From an uncultured Kiritimatiellota bacterium (GTDB lineage Bacteria; Verrucomicrobiota; Kiritimatiellia; RFP12; DVOR01): a DNA stretch of 64,000 nt. The notes under the pieces were generated by a model that was given only the letters and a program-made list of their open reading frames with translations, did no database searches and was not told where the DNA came from. The stretch spans positions 28,922 through 92,921 of the forward strand of contig CALXSF010000005.1 of the NCBI GenBank assembly GCA_944391055.1, read 5' to 3'. Of the stretch, positions 1,844 to 54,789 are shown in pieces. The translations under genes and the position numbers were made by a program. How positions within the stretch are numbered: the stretch's first letter is position 1; each line of letters starts with the position of its first letter.

Positions 1844-2908
1844 ATGGACCCCAAGCAAAAACTGATCGCCATCGCCGTCGGCTCCGTCTGCGGCCTCATC
1901 ATCCTGGCGCTGGCCGTGCTCCTCGTCCTCCAGATCGGGCACATGAACGAGGCGCGCGCGGCCCGCGACAACGCCGAGGCGACCATCAACAACTATTACG
2001 CCGCCAAGCCCTATCCCTCCGAAGACAACCGCGCCGTCCGCAAGCAGGACGAGACGGCCCGCGCCGGGTGGGCCGACAAGGCGCGGGCCGTGCTCACGCA
2101 TGGCCTCCAGGTGCCGCAGGGCGAGTCGCCCTCCCAGTTCGTCCAACGGATCGGCGACGCCGTCCGCGGCCTGAACGCCCGCCAAGAGACCGCCGTCGCC
2201 GCCGCCGGGCAGCAGCAGGTCATGGATTATTCCTTCGGCCGCTACGTCGTCCAAGGCGCCATCCCCAAGGACGCGGACGTCCCCCGCCTCGCCCAGCAGT
2301 TCGCCGTCGTTGAGCACGTCTGCGACCTGCTCTTGGACAATGGCGCGCGCGCCATCACCGCCGTCACCCGCGAGGAGTTCGACGCCGCCGCGGCCAAGCC
2401 CGAGGAGGAGGAGCCCCGCACGCGCCGCCGTCGCCGCCGCGCCGAGGAGGAGGAGCCCGCCGCCGCCGTGGGCGCCGCCATCGACCCCATCCTCGCCAAG
2501 GACGGCGTCCGGCGCGAATCCTACACCATCGCCTTCTCCGCGCCCTACGTCGCCATCGCAAAGACGCTCAACGCCCTTGCCGTCGACGACCTTTTCGTGG
2601 TGGTGACCGACCTGTCCGTGGACGCGACCTCCTCCGTCGCCGCCAGCGTCGACGAGTTGATCAAGAAGCGTCAGTCCGCCAAGAGCAACGCCGCCCGGCG
2701 CGCCGCCTCCTCCCGCGCCGCGGCGCAGAAACAGGCGGCCGCGCCCGCCTCGGAGACCTCGCTCTTCGAGGGCGCCTCCCCCGCCGAGCGCCTTGTCACG
2801 GATCCCGCGCACGCCGCGCCGCTGCGGGCCGTCCTGAGCTTTGACGTCTACTCCGCCGCGCCCGCTCAGGCCCCCGCCGCCCCGGCCGAAACGAAGAAAG
2901 GGAACTAA
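1844..2908 (+). CDS. PilO-like inner-membrane pilus/secretion assembly protein (single N-terminal TM helix, periplasmic domain, low-complexity tail)
   Basis: In-frame ATG at 1844 lies 8 nt after the pilMN stop, with an AGGAGG RBS at about 1829-1834. The N-terminal TM helix (IAIAVGSVCGLIILALAVLLVL) and its position between pilMN and the secretin fit PilO. The ORF-track start at 1757 overlaps pilMN and is unlikely. Confidence 0.5.
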   Translation: MDPKQKLIAIAVGSVCGLIILALAVLLVLQIGHMNEARAARDNAEATINNYYAAKPYPSEDNRAVRKQDETARAGWADKARAVLTHGLQVPQGESPSQFVQRIGDAVRGLNARQETAVAAAGQQQVMDYSFGRYVVQGAIPKDADVPRLAQQFAVVEHVCDLLLDNGARAITAVTREEFDAAAAKPEEEEPRTRRRRRRAEEEEPAAAVGAAIDPILAKDGVRRESYTIAFSAPYVAIAKTLNALAVDDLFVVVTDLSVDATSSVAASVDELIKKRQSAKSNAARRAASSRAAAQKQAAAPASETSLFEGASPAERLVTDPAHAAPLRAVLSFDVYSAAPAQAPAAPAETKKGN

Positions 2909-2911
2909 GCC

Positions 2912-4036
2912 ATGGCGAAAGACCTTCCTCCCATTCTGCGCCAATACGACCGCCTCACGGCCGTCGCCGTCCTCGCCATCCTGCTTGTCTCCCTCCTTTA
3001 CCTCATCCTCGCCGGCCTGCAGGAGCAGAAGCGGGTCGAGCGGTATGACGACGAGTTGAATCTGCGGATTCCCTCCGGCTCCCAGATCGCGGCCGCCAAA
3101 CTCGATCAGGACGAGGCGCTGCTCGCCGGGGTCGTCACGCCCGCCAAGACCGCGCTCCTCACCGTCCGCTCCGATGCCGAGGCCCCCAACCTCTTCACGC
3201 CCGCGCGGCGCCTCCTGTGCGTCAAATGCGTCCAGCCGATCCCGTGGCAGGCCGAGCGCTGCCCCTTCTGCAAGACCGAGCAACCCAAGGAGAAGACCAT
3301 CGACCTCTCCACGGTCGACACCGACGGCGACACCATGCCCGACCAGTGGGAGATCGCGCACAAACTGAACCCGCAGGACGCCAACGACGCTGACCTTGAC
3401 GCCGACGGCGACGGCTTCACCAACGTCGAGGAGTTCCAGGCCAAGACCGACCCCAACGACCCCAAGAGCCACCCCGGCTACGAGACCCGCATGACGCTCC
3501 AAGGCATCTCCGGCGAGAAGGTGCCCCTGCGCGCCGTCGGCAAGATGGAGCTGCCCTCCGTCCGCGACGCCGCCGGCAACCCCGTGCGCCAGTTCGAGAT
3601 CACGTTCGTCTCCGTCTCGCAGGACGGCAAGGAAGGCACCACCAGCCTGCGCACGAAGAACGGCGGCGAGATCGGCAAGTCCGGCTTCCGCTTCGTGCGC
3701 TACAACGAGCAGCCGACCAAGCGCATCGAGATCGGCCAGCACAAGCAGGTGCGCTTCATCAACGTCTCCACCATCGACATCGAGCGCATCTCGGACGGCA
3801 AGAAGATCCAACTCACCTTCAAGGATGAGAACAACCCCGCGTGGCCCGGCGACCCCCTGCTGGAGCAGAAGGCGGAGATTGCCATCGACCTGCCGGGCGT
3901 CGAGCCTGTCACCGTCGCCCCGGGCTCCACGTTCACCGTCAAGGGCGAGACCTACACCGTCCGCGGCGTCGACGCCGAGCAGAAATGCGTGCGCATCGAG
4001 AAAAATGCGGAGAAGAAGGTTTTTGAGTTGAAATAA
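2912..4036 (+). CDS. Membrane-anchored protein with a C4 zinc-ribbon and thrombospondin-type-3-like Ca-binding repeats, then a beta-rich C-terminal domain; candidate PilP-like secretin partner
   Basis: N-terminal TM helix (AVAVLAILLVSLLYLILAGL). CVKC...CPFC is a zinc-ribbon. DTDGDTMPDQWE and DADGDGFTNVEEF are TSP3/calcium-binding Asp-rich repeats. The gene sits immediately upstream of the secretin and is translationally coupled (3-nt gap after the previous gene). Confidence 0.5.
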   Translation: MAKDLPPILRQYDRLTAVAVLAILLVSLLYLILAGLQEQKRVERYDDELNLRIPSGSQIAAAKLDQDEALLAGVVTPAKTALLTVRSDAEAPNLFTPARRLLCVKCVQPIPWQAERCPFCKTEQPKEKTIDLSTVDTDGDTMPDQWEIAHKLNPQDANDADLDADGDGFTNVEEFQAKTDPNDPKSHPGYETRMTLQGISGEKVPLRAVGKMELPSVRDAAGNPVRQFEITFVSVSQDGKEGTTSLRTKNGGEIGKSGFRFVRYNEQPTKRIEIGQHKQVRFINVSTIDIERISDGKKIQLTFKDENNPAWPGDPLLEQKAEIAIDLPGVEPVTVAPGSTFTVKGETYTVRGVDAEQKCVRIEKNAEKKVFELK

Positions 4037-4092
4037 TCCACCCGTTGGGCTATACTCTCTTCACGATTTGGATACGGGCGAGACCCAAACTA

Positions 4093-7000
4093 ATGCGGAG
4101 AAAACGTGCTATGACACACTTTGTGCGCTTTGCCATGGTCGGCGTGATTGTCGCCGGGGCGTCTTGTTGCGCCCTCGCGCAACAGCAGGACGACGACCTC
4201 GACTCCCTCTTGGAGGGGTTGATCGAAGAGCCTGCCGCGCAGCCGGAAAAGCCGGCCGACAAAGAACCGGCCGCCGAGCCTGACAAACCCGCCGAACAAG
4301 TGGCCGACGAACCCGCCGGGAACCCCGCCGTCAAGCCGGCAGGGCAAGAGGCCGAGGTGGCCGTCGGGAACCCCGCCGTCAAGCCGGCGGGCCAAGAGGC
4401 CGACGCGCCCGCCGGGAATCCCGCCGTCAAGCCGGCGGGGCAGGAAGCCGTCGCGCCCGCCGTGGCCAAGGAGGAGCCCGCCGCCAAGGAGGAGCCCTCT
4501 GCGGACAAGGAAGAGCCCGCGGAGGAACCCGCCGAGGAGCCTGCGGTCGCCGAGGAGCCTGCCAAGGAACCCCAGGCTGAGCCGGCCGCCGAGCCCGCGG
4601 CCAAAGAGGACGGTCTTTTGGCCGATTTGGACGGCGACACCGCCGCTTTGGACGCGCTGACGGATGAGGATCGCGCCCTGAACGAGTTGGAAATGCTCAT
4701 CCGCCTCAAGAACCAGGGGCTGGACGTCCAAGCCACCGCCTGCCTCCGCAAGGCGCGTCAGCTGATGACCAAGGCTCCCGCCCCCGGGAAAGCCTTTGAG
4801 CAATATCAGGCGGCCATCAAGATGTACATGGACGCGAAGAAATATTTCCGCGAACATGAGGCCAACCTGCCGCTCAAGGCGGAGTGCGACGCCGGCATCC
4901 GCGAAGCCCGTTACCGTCAGGCGCTGACCCTCTTCCAGGACGACGAGTATGCCGAGGCGCTCGATCTCGCCCAGCAGGTGTTGCGCGAAGGCCATCCCCA
5001 GGCGGCGGCCTTGGTCGCCCAGATCCAGGAAGAGATGAATCGTCCGCCGGAGATCCGGCCCACGCCCGTCCTGCCCGAATACGCGCAGGAGGACTACCAG
5101 GCCTCCCGGCTGGCGGTCATGGAGCGCATCAAGCGGGCCACCGTCTATTACCACCTCGCCAAATACAAGGAGGCCAACGATCAGTTGGAGCTCGTGCTCC
5201 GCGACGATCCCAACAACGAGGCCGCCATCAGCCTCCGCGCCCGCATCAACCAGCGCAAGGATTCCCGGGATCGTCAGCTTCAGGCGTCCACCCATGACGC
5301 GATGATCGATGAGGTCTCCCTCAACTGGACCCCGCTCGGCGCCCTTGGCCGCGACTCCGAGGAGCTCTACGCGCCGACCGTCACCTCCGGGGCCAAGGCG
5401 CCCGTCGATGACGCGGGCCAGAAGGAGGCCCAGGCGGTCCTCGCCAAGCTCCAGTACATCCGCCTCCCCGAGTTCTCCATCCGTCCGCCGAGCACGCTCG
5501 CCGATGCGGTTCAGATGTTCGCCGAGATGTCTCGCGCCTATGACAAGCCCGAGCTCCCCCCCGAGGAAAAGGGCGTCTCCTTCGTGTTGAACATGGGCAC
5601 CAACAAGGCCGCCTCCGCCGAGGCGTCGGCCGAGGCCGACCCCTTCGCCACCGACAACACCGCCTCCTCCGGTGGGCTGCCGCCCATCCAGAACATCAAC
5701 CTGACCTACGTCACGCTCAAGGACGCGCTCGACATGGTCTGCGAGGTCACGGGCTCCAAATACATCATCCGCGGCAAGACCGTCGTCATCGTCCCCAATT
5801 CCTATGTCGAGGGCGAGATGGAGACGCGCACGTACAACGTCATGAGCGGGTTGCTCGAGAAGATCAGCGGCGTGCAGTCCGACCTTCAGGCGTCCTCGTC
5901 CTCCTCCGGGTTCGGTGACGGCAGCGACGACTGGGGGAGCATCGGCTCCGCCTCGCTCGAATCGCCCAGCGCCGGCACCACGCCCGAGATGCTCAAGAGT
6001 TTCTTCCAGGAATTGGGCGTGAACTTCGATGGCAATGCCCGAATCGCTTACCTCTCCTCCATCGGCAAGCTCCGCGTCACCAACACCCCCGAGAACCTCG
6101 CCCTGCTGGAGAGCCTGCTCGAGGAGCTCAACGTCACGCCCTATCAGATTGAGGTCGAGGCGCGCTTCGTCGAGGTCAGCCAAGAGGATCTCAACTCCCT
6201 CGGTTTCGAGTGGCAGCTGAACAGCGACATCGTGGGGACCGTCGGTTCCGGCATTGACTGGTCGTCCTCCCACATCCTGGGCAACCCGCAGGGCGGCAAC
6301 TCCGCCGGCGGCATCGGCGCGGGCGGTTACCATGTCTTCCGCAACACCTCTCTGGGCGGCACGGGCGACGCCAACGTCGCCATGCACGGCGGCTCCTTCA
6401 ACAATGGCATGCGCTTCCTTGGCGATGAGACCACCTATGCCAACCGCATCAACCTGAGCGACGCCACCCTCGCGCCCAACGACGAGTTCGCCTCCTTCTC
6501 CGCCGTCTTCGGCAAGATGGATATCACCATGATCCTCCACATGCTGGCCCAGCGCACCGACACGGACATGCTCTCCAGCCCGAAGGTGCTTGCCCGCCCC
6601 GGCCAGGAGGCCATGATCCGCGTCGTCACCGAATGGATTTATCCCACGGAGTTCGACGTCCAGGAACTCGAAGAGGCCGACAACAATTACGACGGCGACA
6701 ACTCCGTCATCGGCGGCGGCGGTGTGCAGGTTCAGGCCCCGCCCGTCAAGTTCGCCGTCGAGCCGCAGTCCTTCGAGAAGCAGGATGTCGGCGTCTCCCT
6801 CCAGGTCATCCCCGAGGTCTCCCAAGAGGGGCAGATGATCAACCTGCTTGTCAATCCCAAGGTCGTGGAATACCTCGGCGACTTCGAGTATGGCATGCAG
6901 GTGCCCTACATCCAGTACGGTATGACCGGCGGCGTCGTCACCTCCGCCTCCGTGGAATACTATCAGGTCTCCATGCCTCAGCCGATGTTCCACTTCCGTG

Positions 7001-7302
7001 AGATCAGCACCTACCTCTCCGTCTACAACGGCTCCACCGTTGTCATGGGCGGCTTGATCACGGAGACGCGGAACTCCTTCGAGGACAAGATCCCGATTTT
7101 GGGCGACCTCCCCTTCATCGGCTTCCTCTTCCGCTCCACGGGTGAGTACAGCGAGAAGCGCAACCTCCTGATCTTCCTCACCGCGCGTCTGGTCGATCCC
7201 GCGGGCCGTCCCCTCAAGACCGCCACCGACGGCCGCATGGGTTCCGCCGCGATGAACAACCAGTCCCCCGCCGAGACGATGGCCTCCGCCGTCCAGCAGT
7301 GA
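4093..7302 (+). CDS. pilQ: Secretin (PilQ/GspD family) outer-membrane channel with a long N-terminal acidic/Pro-Ala-rich repeat extension
   Basis: C-terminal secretin domain (GGLITETRNSFEDKIPILGDLPFIGFLFRSTGEYSEKRNLLIFLTARLVDP). Signal peptide (MTHFVRFAMVGVIVAGASCCALAQQ). The start is chosen downstream of a TATACT -10 at 4051-4056; the ATG at 4111 is an alternative. About 1070 aa. Confidence 0.8.
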   Translation: MRRKRAMTHFVRFAMVGVIVAGASCCALAQQQDDDLDSLLEGLIEEPAAQPEKPADKEPAAEPDKPAEQVADEPAGNPAVKPAGQEAEVAVGNPAVKPAGQEADAPAGNPAVKPAGQEAVAPAVAKEEPAAKEEPSADKEEPAEEPAEEPAVAEEPAKEPQAEPAAEPAAKEDGLLADLDGDTAALDALTDEDRALNELEMLIRLKNQGLDVQATACLRKARQLMTKAPAPGKAFEQYQAAIKMYMDAKKYFREHEANLPLKAECDAGIREARYRQALTLFQDDEYAEALDLAQQVLREGHPQAAALVAQIQEEMNRPPEIRPTPVLPEYAQEDYQASRLAVMERIKRATVYYHLAKYKEANDQLELVLRDDPNNEAAISLRARINQRKDSRDRQLQASTHDAMIDEVSLNWTPLGALGRDSEELYAPTVTSGAKAPVDDAGQKEAQAVLAKLQYIRLPEFSIRPPSTLADAVQMFAEMSRAYDKPELPPEEKGVSFVLNMGTNKAASAEASAEADPFATDNTASSGGLPPIQNINLTYVTLKDALDMVCEVTGSKYIIRGKTVVIVPNSYVEGEMETRTYNVMSGLLEKISGVQSDLQASSSSSGFGDGSDDWGSIGSASLESPSAGTTPEMLKSFFQELGVNFDGNARIAYLSSIGKLRVTNTPENLALLESLLEELNVTPYQIEVEARFVEVSQEDLNSLGFEWQLNSDIVGTVGSGIDWSSSHILGNPQGGNSAGGIGAGGYHVFRNTSLGGTGDANVAMHGGSFNNGMRFLGDETTYANRINLSDATLAPNDEFASFSAVFGKMDITMILHMLAQRTDTDMLSSPKVLARPGQEAMIRVVTEWIYPTEFDVQELEEADNNYDGDNSVIGGGGVQVQAPPVKFAVEPQSFEKQDVGVSLQVIPEVSQEGQMINLLVNPKVVEYLGDFEYGMQVPYIQYGMTGGVVTSASVEYYQVSMPQPMFHFREISTYLSVYNGSTVVMGGLITETRNSFEDKIPILGDLPFIGFLFRSTGEYSEKRNLLIFLTARLVDPAGRPLKTATDGRMGSAAMNNQSPAETMASAVQQ
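4315..4458 (+). repeat. In-frame 48-bp tandem repeat x3 inside the secretin N-terminal extension (AGNPAVKPAGQEA + 3 variable residues)
   Basis: Three near-identical copies of gggaaccccgccgtcaagccggc(a/g)gg(g/c)caagaggcc are visible by eye. They encode G-N-P-A-V-K-P-A-G-Q-E-A three times. Confidence 0.6.
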
Positions 7303-31636: not shown

Positions 31637-31863
31637 TGTCGTATACCCTGTCTTGTTGGTTCGTGCGCCTTGTCGGCCCGCCTTCGACGATCCGGAGGGC
31701 TTGGGCGCCCGTCGTGCGCGGGTTCTGCCGGGGCGGGGCACCAGGGAGTCTCGCGTGTCCCGCCAATCCCGCGCACAAGTCCCCATAAAATAGCACAATC
31801 GCCCGACGCATTGCAACCGCCCCGCCGCAGGTCGCATAAACGGATGGGCGCGGGGGCGGGGAA

Positions 31864-31900
31864 CGTGTTTGCGGGCCTCGTTTCCCGGACCGCGCCGCAA
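31864..31900. repeat. Dispersed copy of a 36-bp core motif (AACGTGTTTGCGGGCCTCGTTTCCCGGACCGCGCCG) shared with the rpoD-region tandem array
   Basis: About 34/36 identity to the cores at 51590, 51851, 51961 and 52071. It lies between the divergent rplM and gmd promoters. Confidence 0.5.
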
Positions 31901-31943
31901 GTCCCCCCGGACCGCGCCGCATCCCGGCCCCGGGGCGGGCGGT

Positions 31944-31974
31944 TTGCGCGGGGTGGGGCGATTGGGCTATAATG
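31944..31974 (+). promoter_or_regulatory. Candidate gmd promoter (-10 TATAAT at 31969-31974)
   Basis: gggctataatgg, then RBS AAGGAG at 31993-31998 and ATG at 32009. Weak -35-like TTGCGC about 19 bp upstream. Confidence 0.45.
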
Positions 31975-49285: not shown

Positions 49286-51445
<2,160 letters not shown>

Positions 51446-51587
51446 GATCGGACTGCGCTCCTCGCTTTTTCCCTGCGCCGCGGCCGCTCGCCCACGGCGT
51501 GCTTGAAGGCTATAATTATACCAAAAGTAGCACATCGGCGGCCGCCCGTCAAGCGTTTTTTCGCGACCGCCCCGCCTTCCCCCAAAA

Positions 51588-51640
51588 ACGTGTTTGCGGG
51601 CCTCGTTTCCCGGATCGCGCCGCGTCTCCCCCCGAACCTC
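51588..51640. repeat. Isolated partial copy (core plus right flank) of the 110-bp repeat
   Basis: aacgtgtttgcgggcctcgtttcccggatcgcgccgcgtctccccccgaacc is identical to the core of the array units. Confidence 0.6.
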
Positions 51641-51810
51641 GCCGCACCCCGCCAAGACGGCAAGGCCCCGTCGCGGGATGATGGCGCGGCGGGGCAAAAC
51701 AATTTCCCCCCGTTGAAACGGCGCCTTGCGGCCCCGCCCGAGGGGATCAACACATTTATTATAGCAAAAGCCGGCCGATTGTGCCGTGTTTCGGATTGTG
51801 CGCGCCGCCG

Positions 51811-52172
51811 AACCCGCCCCGCCGCGCCGCGCGCCCCGTCCCCCGGCCAAACGTGTTTGCGGGCCTCGTTTCCCGGATCGCGCCGCGTCTCCCCCCGAAC
51901 CCCGCCGCGTCGCGACCCCGAACCCGCCCCGCCGCGCCGCGCGCCCCGTCCCCCGGCCAAACGTGTTTGCGGGCCTCGTTTCTTGGATCGCGCCGTGTCT
52001 CGCCCCGAACCCCGCCGCGCCCCGCCCCCGAACCCGCCCCGCCGCGCCGCGCGCCCCGTCCCCCGCCTAAATGTGTTTGCGGGCCTCGTTTCCCGGATCG
52101 CGCCGTGTCTCCCCCCGAACCCCGCCGCGCCCCGCCCCCGAACCCGCCCCGCCGCGCCGAACGGCTTCGGGA
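51811..52172. repeat. Tandem array of ~3.3 copies of a 110-bp non-coding repeat (~95% identity)
   Basis: Units start at about 51811, 51921 and 52031, with a partial unit from 52141. Each unit reads gaacccgccccgccgcgccgcgcgccccgtcccccggccaaacgtgtttgcgggcctcgtttcccggatcgcgccg(c/t)gtctc(c/g)ccccgaaccccgccgcg... There are no variable spacers, so it is not a CRISPR array. It lies between divergent rpoD (minus) and a secreted-protein gene (plus). Confidence 0.8.
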
Positions 52173-52212
52173 GGCTTGCGCAGGATGGCGGGCTTGTGCT
52201 ACGATAACCCCC

Positions 52213-53277
52213 ATGAAACGACATTGGAGTCTCTTTGCGCTTGGAGTGCTTCTCCTCGCCCCCTCGGCGTGGGCGGAGTTCGCGTACTCCGCTTATTTCT
52301 GCCGGGAGGCGCTGCTGGATGACGGCTCCACCCTTTCCTCGCTGCCGCTCGCTTATGCCGATGGCACGCCCGCGGCGGGGGAAACGCTGGCCTTCCTCTA
52401 CGTGGTGCCCGAGGCGGGCGTCGCGTTCACGGAGGAGGATTCGCCGCCCTTCACCTTTGCGTCCGATGGCACGGTGACGCTTGGGGAGGGGGCCGCGCGC
52501 GTCGTGTGGGCGGCCATGGGTGATGTGGAGTCGCCCAACCACGGCGTGGCCTTGGGGGCGGATGGGCTGCCCGCGTTGAACTATGTCAATGGGTTCGGTT
52601 TTTGCACCGCGAACTGGCCTGCCGAGGCGGGGGAGCCTCCGGCCACGGCCTATCTTTATGTAATCCATTTCGACACCCGCGCCGTCGACCCTGCCACGGG
52701 CGAGATGACGGTCGCCGCGCCCGTCGTTTCGGGGGACAAAGGGCCCGCCCCCCTCTCCGCGTGGGGCGCCACGCTCTGCGAGGTCTTTTCTTGGCCGACG
52801 ATGGGGCCCGGCGTGGCGGAGTATCTGAATCTGCCTTATGAGGGCGAGGGGAACGTCCGGCTGGCCGCCGCGGAGCAGCCCGTCGCGCCCATCACCGAGC
52901 TTGTCGTGGAGGGCGAGACGCTCACGGATCCCGACGCGATCGCGGCCGCACTTGCCCCCGCCGTCTCCGGTTTCGCCGCCGCGGAGGATGAGGAGGGCGA
53001 CCCGGTCTTCACGTTCAGTTTCGCTCCCGCGCGGGTGCCCGAGGCCACCACCTACACGCTTTGGACCTCCGACCGCTTGGACGGCGGGTGGATGACCTTC
53101 GACGCGCTCCTTCAACAAAAAGGGCTTGCCCAATCCGGCGGGGTGCGCTATACTAAGTGGCGTATTCAGAAGGAAGGGTCTGTGGCAATCCCGCGCCTTC
53201 CCGATGAGGACACGCGCTTTTACCGCCTTCGCGGCGACATCGACGTAGGAACGAACGAAAGCGTCAAAGGAGAATGA
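52213..53277 (+). CDS. Secreted hypothetical protein (354 aa)
   Basis: Signal peptide (MKRHWSLFALGVLLLAPSAWA). ATG at 52213 is 40 nt after the repeat array. No recognized domain. Upstream ORF-track residues are repeat-encoded. Confidence 0.5.
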   Translation: MKRHWSLFALGVLLLAPSAWAEFAYSAYFCREALLDDGSTLSSLPLAYADGTPAAGETLAFLYVVPEAGVAFTEEDSPPFTFASDGTVTLGEGAARVVWAAMGDVESPNHGVALGADGLPALNYVNGFGFCTANWPAEAGEPPATAYLYVIHFDTRAVDPATGEMTVAAPVVSGDKGPAPLSAWGATLCEVFSWPTMGPGVAEYLNLPYEGEGNVRLAAAEQPVAPITELVVEGETLTDPDAIAAALAPAVSGFAAAEDEEGDPVFTFSFAPARVPEATTYTLWTSDRLDGGWMTFDALLQQKGLAQSGGVRYTKWRIQKEGSVAIPRLPDEDTRFYRLRGDIDVGTNESVKGE

Positions 53278-53279
53278 CG

Positions 53280-54107
53280 ATGCGAAAAGTTATTGCAGTG
53301 TTTGCCGGGGTGGCCGTGGCCGGCCTCGCCCTCGCCGCCAACGTCACGACGGCCAATACCGCCGTGGTCGTCCGGAAGAACCCCGTGGAGAGCGCCGACG
53401 GCTGGCAGTTCCTCTGCGTCCCCGTCCGCGGCTTCGACATCACCGGCCAAGGGAAAGGGCTGGGCGTGCCGCTGAACGACGTGCTCCCCCCCGCCGATTT
53501 CCCCGAGGGAACGGAACTTCGGATTCAGGGCAACAGCACGGGCGCGTCCCTTGACGCCGAGGGTACGGCGGAACTTGCGCCGGACGGTGTTTACACCGTG
53601 GCGGAGTCTGGGGACGCTTGGCAGGTTTCGGAAGGCGGGACGGGTTCCGGAGAGGATTTGCTCAAGGCCGGTGCGTTTCTGTGGCTGAAGGTTGGGGGGA
53701 CGTCGGCTCCGAAGTTGCTGGGCGGTCTTTCGTTCGCCTTCGCCTCGAATACCGCCACCGAAACCCCTGTCACCACCTTCTGCGGGGAGCAGAACACCCT
53801 CGCCAAGGGGGAGACATTGGTTCCCGCCGAAACGGCGCCCGGCATGGTGGCCTACGGCAACGACACTGACACGGCGGTGGATGTTACTGCCGTTTGCGCC
53901 GAGCCGCAGGATGGCGACGAAATCCTGCGGATTAAAGACGGCGGCAAGGAATATCAATACTTGGAGTACATGAATAGCCGCGGACAATCTGGGTGGTATT
54001 ATTTCGGCACTAACGGGAAGGTGAAAATCCCCGAGACCCAGGGCGAATGGATTCGCACGATCGCCGCCGGCGAGGCGTTCTATTACTATCGTCGCCCGAC
54101 GGAGTGA
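53280..54107 (+). CDS. Secreted hypothetical protein (276 aa)
   Basis: AAGGAG RBS 8 nt upstream of ATG (MRKVIAVFAGVAVAGLALAANV...). A TATACT promoter-like element at 53161-53166 sits inside the end of the previous gene. Confidence 0.5.
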   Translation: MRKVIAVFAGVAVAGLALAANVTTANTAVVVRKNPVESADGWQFLCVPVRGFDITGQGKGLGVPLNDVLPPADFPEGTELRIQGNSTGASLDAEGTAELAPDGVYTVAESGDAWQVSEGGTGSGEDLLKAGAFLWLKVGGTSAPKLLGGLSFAFASNTATETPVTTFCGEQNTLAKGETLVPAETAPGMVAYGNDTDTAVDVTAVCAEPQDGDEILRIKDGGKEYQYLEYMNSRGQSGWYYFGTNGKVKIPETQGEWIRTIAAGEAFYYYRRPTE

Positions 54108-54147
54108 GCCATTATTTGGGAAAGTTTTCAGCAGCAAGGAGAAAGAG

Positions 54148-54789
54148 ATGAGAAAAGTTTTGTTTGCGTTGCTGGGTGTGGCGATTAGCGGGATGGTTTC
54201 TGCGATTACGTGTGAGTGGTCGTGGTCGTCCAATGGGAGTGCTTGGCAGTCCAATTCGGCTATTTACATGGTTTACTCGCAGGTCCAGTTGGATGCCGAT
54301 CAGGTGGTCAGTGCCGCCAATGTGTCTTATGGTTCTTCGGTAACGGGTGAGAAGAACAGCACGGGGGGAGCGTGGACGTCTCCGACTATGCCGGGATCCA
54401 ATACGATTGTGGTCAGCAGTCCGGCGACCAAGTCTAATACTGAGGCTGGGTCGATTCAGGGTAATGCAGGTTTCTCCGAGGGTAATTTCGTTTGGAACGA
54501 CAGTATGTTTGGGGAGGGCGGCGGTTACTTTTATTTGGTGATTTTCAACAGTACGAGCGCAGACACCGCCACGGAGTTTGCCGTCGCCCAAGCCGGGGAG
54601 AGCGGGCACTTGGTGAAAAATGGCAATGGAGTGGCCATTCCAAGGCCTGGTGAAGATCCTTTGCCAATCAACTACATCGACCCGGTTTGGATTGGCGGCA
54701 CGTTCCGTGATGCGGCGCCGGAGCCGACGGCGCTGGCGTTGCTGGCGCTGGGCGTGGCCGGGGCGGCGCTTCGCCGCCGCGTGCGCTGA
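54148..54789 (+). CDS. PEP-CTERM sorting-domain secreted protein (213 aa)
   Basis: RBS AAGGAGAAAGAG. Signal peptide MRKVLFALLGVAISGMVSA. C-terminal PEPTALALLALGVAGAALRRRVR is a PEP-CTERM anchor. Confidence 0.7.
   Translation: MRKVLFALLGVAISGMVSAITCEWSWSSNGSAWQSNSAIYMVYSQVQLDADQVVSAANVSYGSSVTGEKNSTGGAWTSPTMPGSNTIVVSSPATKSNTEAGSIQGNAGFSEGNFVWNDSMFGEGGGYFYLVIFNSTSADTATEFAVAQAGESGHLVKNGNGVAIPRPGEDPLPINYIDPVWIGGTFRDAAPEPTALALLALGVAGAALRRRVR

Follow-up and report, generated by a model that had tools for sequence, protein, structure and literature searches.

BOX elements of Streptococcus pneumoniae are composite intergenic repeats with a boxA-boxB(n)-boxC organization, in which the boxB array number varies between strains by slippage or unequal crossover; terminal inverted repeats, target-site duplications, a stable stem-loop and extensive chromosomal proliferation have been reported for them, and they were once suspected of regulating their neighbours (Croucher et al. 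2011, PMC3049150). Composite interspersed repeats of this kind are the nearest described analogues of the elements reported here, which we found in a 64-kb stretch of DNA (the window) from a genome that its rpoD homologues place in uncultured Kiritimatiellia. Like BOX, these elements are small, composite and intergenic, and their internal module number varies between strains. They differ from BOX in that terminal inverted repeats, target-site duplications and a conserved fold were not found, in having only a handful of exact-core copies, in being GC-rich (array and element ~80% G+C, genome ~70%), and in the tandem amplification of the whole element, not just of a sub-repeat, at one locus.

REPs are imperfect palindromes, often in alternating orientation, which occur in hundreds of copies, mostly at 3' ends or inside operons. 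The family described here resembles REPs and BIMEs as a set of short conserved intergenic motifs that can cluster, but it has no conserved palindrome and is of a single orientation, promoter-side and apparently low in copy number. The Correia and NEMIS MITEs of Neisseria likewise do not code for protein, insert into promoter regions and can change how neighbouring genes are expressed, but their defining terminal inverted repeats are absent here, clear target-site duplications were not found, and no related IS was identified. Promoter-proximal VNTRs, for example at nadA in Neisseria, have units of 1-10 bp and change by slipped-strand mispairing, with phase or strength variation of surface genes. 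Like them, the array is repeated in tandem ahead of a promoter that serves a variable surface-protein operon, and its copy number is strain-variable, whereas its 110-bp unit would change by recombination.

The rrn P1 promoters of E. coli are activated from upstream through Fis and an UP element. Here, too, an A-tract is located just upstream of the -35, further conserved sequence is centred near -80 to -95, and promoters of translation and transcription genes are involved, but the core is unrelated to Fis sites, and sister species have the same promoter without the element. For PEP-CTERM genes of Proteobacteria, a conserved upstream cis-site was described, which contains a sigma-54 -24/-12 motif and a TTTACA-containing motif, and other such sites were expected elsewhere (Haft et al. 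2006, PMC1569441). The promoters described here, in contrast, are sigma-70-like without a correctly spaced conserved GG-N10-GC, and two PEP-CTERM paralogues (L063 and L065) lack the element.

The tandem array upstream of rpoD

The spacer that carries the array measures 767 bp (51446-52212) and separates two divergent genes. Its left neighbour, rpoD (49286-51445, minus strand), encodes 719 aa; the Pfam domains Sigma70_r1_2, r2, r3 and r4 are assigned on an identical protein, homologues are named RpoD of Kiritimatiellia, and the identical protein is found on 11 metagenome contigs examined here. On the right, the gene at 52213-53277 (plus strand) encodes a 354-aa secreted protein with a signal peptide and no Pfam match. 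It heads a strain-hypervariable cluster, which ends with a PEP-CTERM protein gene (54148-54789) two genes downstream of the 52213 start.

The array of non-coding 110-bp repeats in front of rpoD is confirmed. TRF reports 3.2 head-to-tail copies of the unit at 51803-52159 on the plus strand, with 93% matches and a score of 637, and 22-nt periods nested within the unit; a repeat search finds the copies at 51803, 51913 and 52023 (93-94% identical) together with a 66% copy at 51540. Each unit is composed of one core and four C-rich sub-repeats of ~22 bp. The preliminary description of this DNA had recognised the tandem units but placed their identity at ~95% rather than ~93%, and it had repeats filling a 770-bp gap, which is not the case because the stretch 51647-51802 is unique.

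The 36-mer core occurs five times in the 64-kb window, always on the plus strand, and is absent from all 100 dinucleotide-preserving shuffles of the window. Within the array, it is matched exactly in unit 1 (51850-51885, AACGTGTTTGCGGGCCTCGTTTCCCGGATCGCGCCG), with two mismatches in unit 2 (51960-51995, a CC to TT variant) and with one mismatch in unit 3 (52070-52105, an AATG variant), which begins 106 bp before the -35 of the secreted-protein gene. A solitary core-plus-tail copy with an exact core (51587-51646, plus strand) adjoins the rpoD promoter, its 60 nt being 98% identical to the array units; it had been noted before as a half-unit with the shorter extent 51588-51640. The remaining occurrence lies between rplM (minus) and gmd (plus), where a family member at 31848-31945 on the plus strand consists of a core (31862-31897, 35/36 identical) and two 22-bp sub-repeats, with homology spanning 71-99 nt. 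The earlier account had seen this recurrence as well, at 31864-31900 with about 34/36 identity.

The array is not an assembly artefact, since independent assemblies of sister strains carry three (L049) or four (L048) units. A scaffold gap falls at the array in L001, the contig of L002 ends in it, and three Logan contigs stop inside the element at the gmd locus, which is the usual behaviour of multi-copy sequence under short-read assembly.

A coding function was rejected, as 110 is not a multiple of 3 and the ORFs crossing the array shift frame between successive units. A search of 5.8 billion predicted proteins for further copies, with the array translated in all six frames, yielded two ORFs and nothing else, both spurious and both from the same locus of sister strains; the sole matching database "proteins" are such frame-shifting array ORFs. 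Low-complexity words swamped the candidate list of this search. A CRISPR array had rightly been dismissed: the inter-core sequence is repeated along with the core, the whole unit at 93%, and there are no unique or variable spacers. An oriC or DnaA-box cluster was rejected with no TTATCCACA at one mismatch or fewer in the window and an array as G+C-rich as this one, and a parS site with TGTTNCACGTGAAACA unmatched at up to two mismatches in the window and in L059. G-quadruplex or i-motif enrichment was also discarded, given that just 2 of the 9 minus-strand motifs lie within the array, whose C/G skew is not extreme for the genome.

It is highly improbable that the element works as a transcribed RNA, whether as a small RNA in repeated copies, as a 5' leader or as a repeat RNA of the type III antitoxin kind for Abi_2, the product of a gene in the same spacer of L048 and L049. 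Some dispersed copies can form a hairpin of 9-11 bp (GGGGAACG / CGTTTCYYG), in which the CC, TC and TT variants preserve G-U pairs on the plus strand only, tandem repeats are located upstream of the Abi gene in L048 and L049, and a minus-strand TGCTATAAT within the unique spacer could transcribe the solitary copy; this extended -10 is present as previously described, at 51758-51766 instead of ~51757-51765. However, Rfam gave no match at gathering thresholds over the whole window and only noise at permissive E-values in 51400-52300 and in 4400-5150 of L059 (ar14 E=9.3, MIR2933 E=2). Folding of the units on both strands revealed no excess stability (z-scores +0.2 to +1.9), predicted hairpins and minimum-energy folds are not the same from one copy to another, and the 5' arm of the hairpin is missing in the array units. 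Furthermore, the predicted promoters to the left and right both have the element on their upstream side, and the secreted-protein gene, whose promoter is downstream of the array, is probably leaderless. With no Rfam match and no fold shared across the copies, a structured RNA or riboswitch-like leader was rejected, and the small-RNA or leader candidate of the preliminary description finds no support. A ToxIN-like type III toxin-antitoxin system was rejected, too: no toxin gene is found beside the array in the window, Abi_2 (PF07751) of L048 and L049 is not a ToxN/AbiQ-type toxin, an AT-rich upstream region of its own separates it by ~245 nt from the repeats, and the array is retained in the window and in L047, which have no Abi_2.

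A dispersed family of modular elements

The array units belong to a family with at least seven loci, all in spacers between divergent genes and all of the same polarity. Given in window orientation, with the left gene on the minus and the right gene on the plus strand, these are rplM-rpsI and gmd-fcl (window, L050-L054); rpoD and the secreted and PEP-CTERM cluster (window, sister strains); rpmH with a 26-aa PEP-CTERM gene remnant and Wzy_C-rmlA-rmlC (L059); a PEP-CTERM gene then rpmE-prfA, and a gene for a secreted protein of ~520 aa (L027 and L062, 522 aa in L062); a truncated PEP-CTERM pseudogene and a prepilin-type (N_methyl) gene (L042); an aspartate aminotransferase gene and the contig end (L043); and a gene for a DUF2157 membrane protein and an ISAs1-type IS (L011 and L016). 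The copy between rpmH and the Wzy_C gene (AACGAGATTACGGGCCTCGTTTTTCGG) is diverged and was found by a profile search on scaffold L059, which extends the window leftward; three family loci, one diverged, are located in ~75 kb around the window. Every copy found is intergenic, in a divergent spacer and of single polarity. Four of six loci are less than 1 kb from rpmH, rplM-rpsI, rpoD or rpmE-prfA.

The members are modular, with a core of ~28 bp (AACGWGTTTGCGGGCCTCGTTTCYYGGA) followed by a variable number of C-rich ~22-bp sub-repeats, which read CCCGRAnCnCGCCGyrTCTCC-like in the aligned copies. The gmd locus has two sub-repeats in the window and three in strain L052, a strain-variable number of internal 22-nt modules that is BOX-like. 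Population SNPs at this locus concentrate in the element, where the tail is polymorphic, whereas both flanking promoters are invariant, that of gmd in 9 strains. Across the seven loci, the mean pairwise identity is 91% in the 28-nt core, a value partly inflated by ascertainment, six loci having been recovered with an exact 18-mer, and amounts to 73% in the next 28 nt, 50% in the following 29 nt and 56% in the 16 nt preceding the core. The core is unchanged in 12 of 12 array units compared. Between loci, homology extends over 70-100 nt at 82-87% identity, and over ~430 nt in one pair (L027 and L059). Homology over 70-100 nt is not the pattern of independently selected short sites and points to descent instead.

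A REP- or MITE-like repeat family had been among the candidates of the first description. The family part of this idea holds, the units being related by descent to copies at six or more other loci over 70-100 nt, but there is no conserved palindrome, there are no terminal inverted repeats, and exact-core copies are few. Membership in the REP/BIME class was rejected, with no hairpin-forming palindrome in every copy and z-scores at or above 0, and membership in the MITEs with no terminal inverted repeats. Inverted 8-mers at the element ends were present neither in the gmd copy nor in the array unit, one weak inverted repeat was seen in the spacer, and clear target-site duplications were not found. 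G-rich runs (GCGCGGGGGCGGGG-like) that flank the gmd, L027 and L042 copies left and right are of low complexity and absent from the array units. The copy in L011 is not the end of the neighbouring IS, whose inverted repeats at 2440 and 3594 leave the core outside both.

The exact 18-mer GTTTGCGGGCCTCGTTTC was scanned in one genome per species for 185,579 species and yielded 17 stretches, roughly the chance number. The extended core is present in only two of them, Kiritimatiellaeota bins that come from the project which also produced L002. In a metagenome scan with the 18-mer, 5 of 26 stretches were true, all from one assembly, and viral contigs gave one chance match only. The exact 18-mer has one copy per related GTDB MAG and is found on five contigs in one metagenome; exact-core copies number about five per assembly. 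By these scans, the family is restricted to one uncultured Kiritimatiellia lineage. A literature search on the core sequence and on Kiritimatiellota repeats found no publication that mentions either.

Strain variation and the variable island

Strains with rpoD identities of 99% or more differ in this spacer: in L047 it measures 283 bp and holds only one unit, in the window and L049 it contains the solitary copy and three units, and in L048 the solitary copy and four units. The variants AAACGAG and CTTGG are common to all units of L048 and L049 and are mostly missing from the units of the window; such strain-specific variants point to homogenisation or independent amplification.

In L048 and L049, a gene for a 299-aa Abi_2 protein lies between the solitary copy and the array, in a cassette flanked by two GAACCCCGC(C/T)GCG sub-repeats. 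This cassette is absent in the window, where the unique spacer at 51647-51802 is 96% identical over 137 nt to the flank of the Abi_2 3' end, and the window therefore looks like a deletion derivative of the L048/L049 arrangement. The solitary copy, the former "half unit", looks like an array member that was cut off by the Abi_2 insertion.

Compared with L049, the window shows 99.4% identity in the 5.8 kb that precede the array on its left, 87-91% in the array itself, and less than 85% at the nucleotide level in the secreted-protein gene, with 49% protein identity, before the identity is back to 95% from 54679 onward. The drop in identity at the array therefore sets the array at the edge of a hypervariable surface-protein island.

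If the element or its repeated tail were a preferred target or att-like site for the insertion and exchange of foreign DNA, which we regard as unlikely, this would explain why it marks the edge of the variable island. The cliff in identity at the array, the Abi_2 cassette between two sub-repeats in L048 and L049, the ISAs1-type IS ~100 bp from the core in L011 and L016, and the left sides of the copies in L026 (unrelated sequence) and L042 (a 5'-truncated PEP-CTERM pseudogene) are consistent with such a site. Yet no recombinase gene adjoins any copy, the IS inverted repeats exclude the core, L026 and L042 are short metagenome contigs that are possibly chimeric at a repeat, and repeats draw rearrangements without being dedicated sites.

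Neighbouring promoters and the origin of the array

The promoters discussed here are putative in position and function, because they were called by eye from sequence and a consensus scan of the spacer for promoters and terminators found no promoter at threshold and one weak terminator-like site, below shuffle expectation. The putative dual promoter of rpoD (51515-51552, minus strand) has a -35 TTGACG at 51547-51552, a -10 TACTTT at 51524-51529 and a second TGGTATAAT at 51515-51523. Its architecture (TTGACR, 17-nt spacer, TAYTTT, then TGGTATAAT) is kept in L046, L068 and L069. The candidate sigma-70-like promoter of the secreted-protein gene (52176-52205, plus strand) reads TTGCGC, 18-nt spacer, TACGAT and is unchanged in the matching stretch of L032, L047, L048 and L049, whereas the coding sequence diverges; the mRNA is probably leaderless because the ATG at 52213 follows the promoter by only 7 nt. 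At the other locus of the window, a putative rplM promoter (31787-31816, minus strand) has TTGCAA at 31811-31816, an 18-nt spacer and TATTTT at 31787-31792, and a putative gmd promoter (31944-31973, plus strand) downstream of the element has TTGCGC, an 18-nt spacer and TATAAT. The local promoter pattern is an A-tract, a -35 TTGNNN, a spacer of 17-18 nt and an extended -10 TGTGC-TAnnnT. Conservation, either between species or among paralogues, lends support to the promoters assigned to rpoD and the PEP-CTERM genes.

Other promoter classes were rejected by inspection. For an ECF-type promoter (GGAAC-N14-CGTT, either strand), the spacer is 2 nt short and GGAAC is missing in the array units, and for a sigma-54 promoter downstream of the element, the promoters of the secreted-protein gene, L027 and L042 have no GG-N10-GC in register. 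A GG-N10-GC candidate in L062 is lost in L059, and the promoters look sigma-70-like.

From the core to the leftward -35, the gap is 34 bp at rpoD (33 in L047), 33 at the PEP-CTERM gene and 45 at the putative rplM promoter, all close to multiples of 11, with the gaps at L011 and L043 being ambiguous; the rightward distances of 82, 106, 166 and 185 bp are unphased. The 33-bp gaps of L027, L062 and L059 are not independent, as these are copies of one duplicated segment of ~430 nt. As read from the putative promoters, this phasing is the best argument that the core may be the site of a candidate DNA-binding protein, located at about -70 to -105 from leftward sigma-70 promoters, past the UP-like A-tract. 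The array would then multiply such sites between rpoD and the variable surface-protein operon, resembling the Fis sites upstream of rrn P1. We consider this role possible but doubtful. In its favour, the lengths of the unit (110 bp) and of the sub-repeat (22) are both divisible by 11, no block is conserved as well as the core, and every copy is in a divergent promoter region. The neighbours include rpoD, rplM-rpsI, rpmH and rpmE to one side and, to the other, envelope or glycan genes (gmd, Wzy_C-rml, secreted and PEP-CTERM genes, the N_methyl pilin-like gene). The copy in L059, beside a decayed PEP-CTERM gene, has 4-5 core substitutions, which also suits a binding site, as does the precedent of an upstream cis-site for PEP-CTERM genes (Haft et al. 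2006, PMC1569441).

Conservation in relatives argues in the other direction. Three related species (L046, L068 and L069, with rpoD 87%, 75% and 69% identical) all retain the rpoD dual promoter but have neither the element nor any tandem repeat upstream of rpoD, and the PEP-CTERM paralogues L063 and L065 have the same promoter and leader and no element. Conservation of the site at orthologous promoters, as expected of a transcription factor regulon, was seen neither at rpoD nor at these paralogues, and by this comparison the element is not a conserved component of the rpoD promoter or its regulation. In addition, near-identical strains have different numbers of units, the promoters were assigned by eye with none found by the consensus scan, two gaps are ambiguous, and the copies share 70-430 nt of homology, so that both their similarity and the 33-nt gap of L027, L062 and L059 can be inherited rather than selected. 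The transcription factor or UP-like sites proposed earlier may still apply, with the core 33/34 or 45 bp upstream of the leftward -35s of rpoD, a PEP-CTERM gene and rplM. The proposed link to housekeeping, growth-rate-regulated promoters turns out to be weak, given the absence of the element from the conserved rpoD promoters of the three relatives, the variable unit number, and the other copies that flank aminotransferase, DUF2157 and PEP-CTERM genes.

A more specific form of this idea, to which we give still less credence, is that the ~28-bp core is the operator of a candidate protein at a helically phased position of -70 to -105 and the array a strain-tunable, enhancer-like cluster. If true, rpoD, rplM-rpsI and the PEP-CTERM genes by rpmH and rpmE would be linked to divergent envelope and glycan genes, and the array would set the expression of rpoD, of the hypervariable surface-protein operon, or of both.

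On balance, we favour a reading in which the array arose by local amplification of a young and modular interspersed DNA repeat that is confined to one lineage, and would now be VNTR-like at a recombination-prone boundary. The reading builds on the observed family, its modularity, strain variability, restricted distribution and positions, from which we infer the mechanism of amplification and the lack of a dedicated function. The whole element (core and four sub-repeats, 110 bp) would have been duplicated head to tail in the spacer between rpoD and the secreted-protein gene, and the unit number would drift through unequal homologous recombination or slippage, with units partly homogenised within a strain. 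A foreign Abi_2 cassette may then have been inserted into the array and, in the window, mostly deleted again, leaving one copy stranded beside the rpoD promoter. The element would act at the DNA level only, being neither coding nor a structured RNA, and any effect is probably a by-product via the altered spacing and upstream context of the two divergent promoters at the margin of the hypervariable island.

Several observations run counter to a repeat of this kind. The core is better conserved than the remainder of the element, all loci are in divergent promoter regions with leftward gaps near multiples of 11, and four of the six loci are near rpmH, rplM-rpsI, rpoD or rpmE-prfA. No transposition hallmarks were found, and ~5 exact-core copies per assembly are far below the numbers of classical selfish repeat families.

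Read in this way, the array represents a previously undescribed interspersed repeat and VNTR in an uncultured Kiritimatiellia lineage, and it is usable as a strain marker. It also carries a warning, as assemblies of the lineage break before rpoD and gmd and gene callers yield spurious proteins over the array. Furthermore, the array marks the recombination-prone boundary of a variable surface-protein and defence region. If the core binds a protein, it would offer a way into promoter architecture and regulation, subjects on which hardly anything is known for the phylum, and it would be a case of a regulatory site that spread via duplication and tandem amplification.

Promoter and leader sequences

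The layout of the rpoD promoter region is kept across the Kiritimatiellia (window 51510-51552; relatives L046 ~3900-3950, L068 ~2480-2530 and L069 ~320-365), with TTGACR, a 17-nt spacer and TAYTTT, then TGGTATAAT 3 nt further on. The region also includes the palindromic stretch TATAATTATA. The TGTGC-TAnnnT type of extended -10 is shared by local promoters, in which an A6 tract often precedes the -35.

The PEP-CTERM paralogue genes have in common a conserved promoter and a 5' leader of ~150-250 nt with several hairpins, found at the element-bearing locus L062 (2346-2490), on L059 (4765-4911, minus strand), the scaffold extending the window leftward, and at the element-free loci L065 (9679-9835) and L063 (9527-9685). 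This leader, a candidate for a new cis-regulatory leader RNA, has no Rfam match. An RNAalifold prediction from only 4 sequences gives it 25 pairs, of which 10 show compensatory changes.

The same scaffold (L059, scaffold_103) carries, just beyond the window edge, the rpmH-rnpA-yidD-yidC cluster (region 1983-5108, ~5-10 kb before the window's first position), near which the replication origin is usually located. The rpmH/Wzy_C spacer contains a 26-aa ORF that looks like a signal peptide fused in frame to a PEP-CTERM anchor, from a decayed PEP-CTERM gene.

Element edges and reading frames over the array

In two related MAGs, the repeat core lies ~100 bp from an ISAs1-family insertion sequence (L011 2440-3594; contig end in L016) with inverted repeats CAGGGCAAACGCAT, beyond which the genes are AT-richer and probably foreign. 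On two short metagenome contigs (L026 1-57; L042 left of the core), the adjoining left flank of the element either bears no relation to the window or consists of a 5'-truncated, frameshifted PEP-CTERM gene. Either the DNA has truly been rearranged at the edge of the element, or these contigs are chimeric.

For the sister strains L048 (370-1017, P0121) and L049 (7776-8381, P0122), public gene sets list spurious 200-aa proteins, rich in Arg, Gly and Pro, that are translations of the repeat array, and the window ORFs 51759-52214 (minus strand) and 51781-53277 (plus strand) are the same artefacts. A 48-nt (16-codon) tandem repeat at 4297-4462 (3.5 copies, 85%), within the long plus-strand ORF 4045-7302, is probably coding and Pro/Ala/Lys-rich, and is unrelated to the rpoD-side array.

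Strain variation beside rpoD

The gene for the secreted protein and the one after it (52280-54680) are hypervariable among strains with at least 99% identical rpoD, with below 85% nucleotide, 49% amino acid identity. The promoter, signal peptide and C-terminal ~130 aa of the secreted-protein gene are much better kept, which suggests allelic replacement or diversifying selection of this surface protein. Its ATG follows a TACGAT -10 after 7 nt (52200-52215) and a Shine-Dalgarno sequence is absent, so that, judged from the sequence, the mRNA is probably leaderless.

The sister strains L048 and L049 have an inserted 299-aa Abi_2 gene (PF07751, abortive-infection-like; L048 1136-2035, L049 6706-7605, equivalent to window ~51800), with the solitary repeat copy on one side and the array on the other. 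The window retains just ~156 bp of flank from this insertion. Directly upstream of rpoD, a putative phage-defence gene is thus present in some strains and absent in others.
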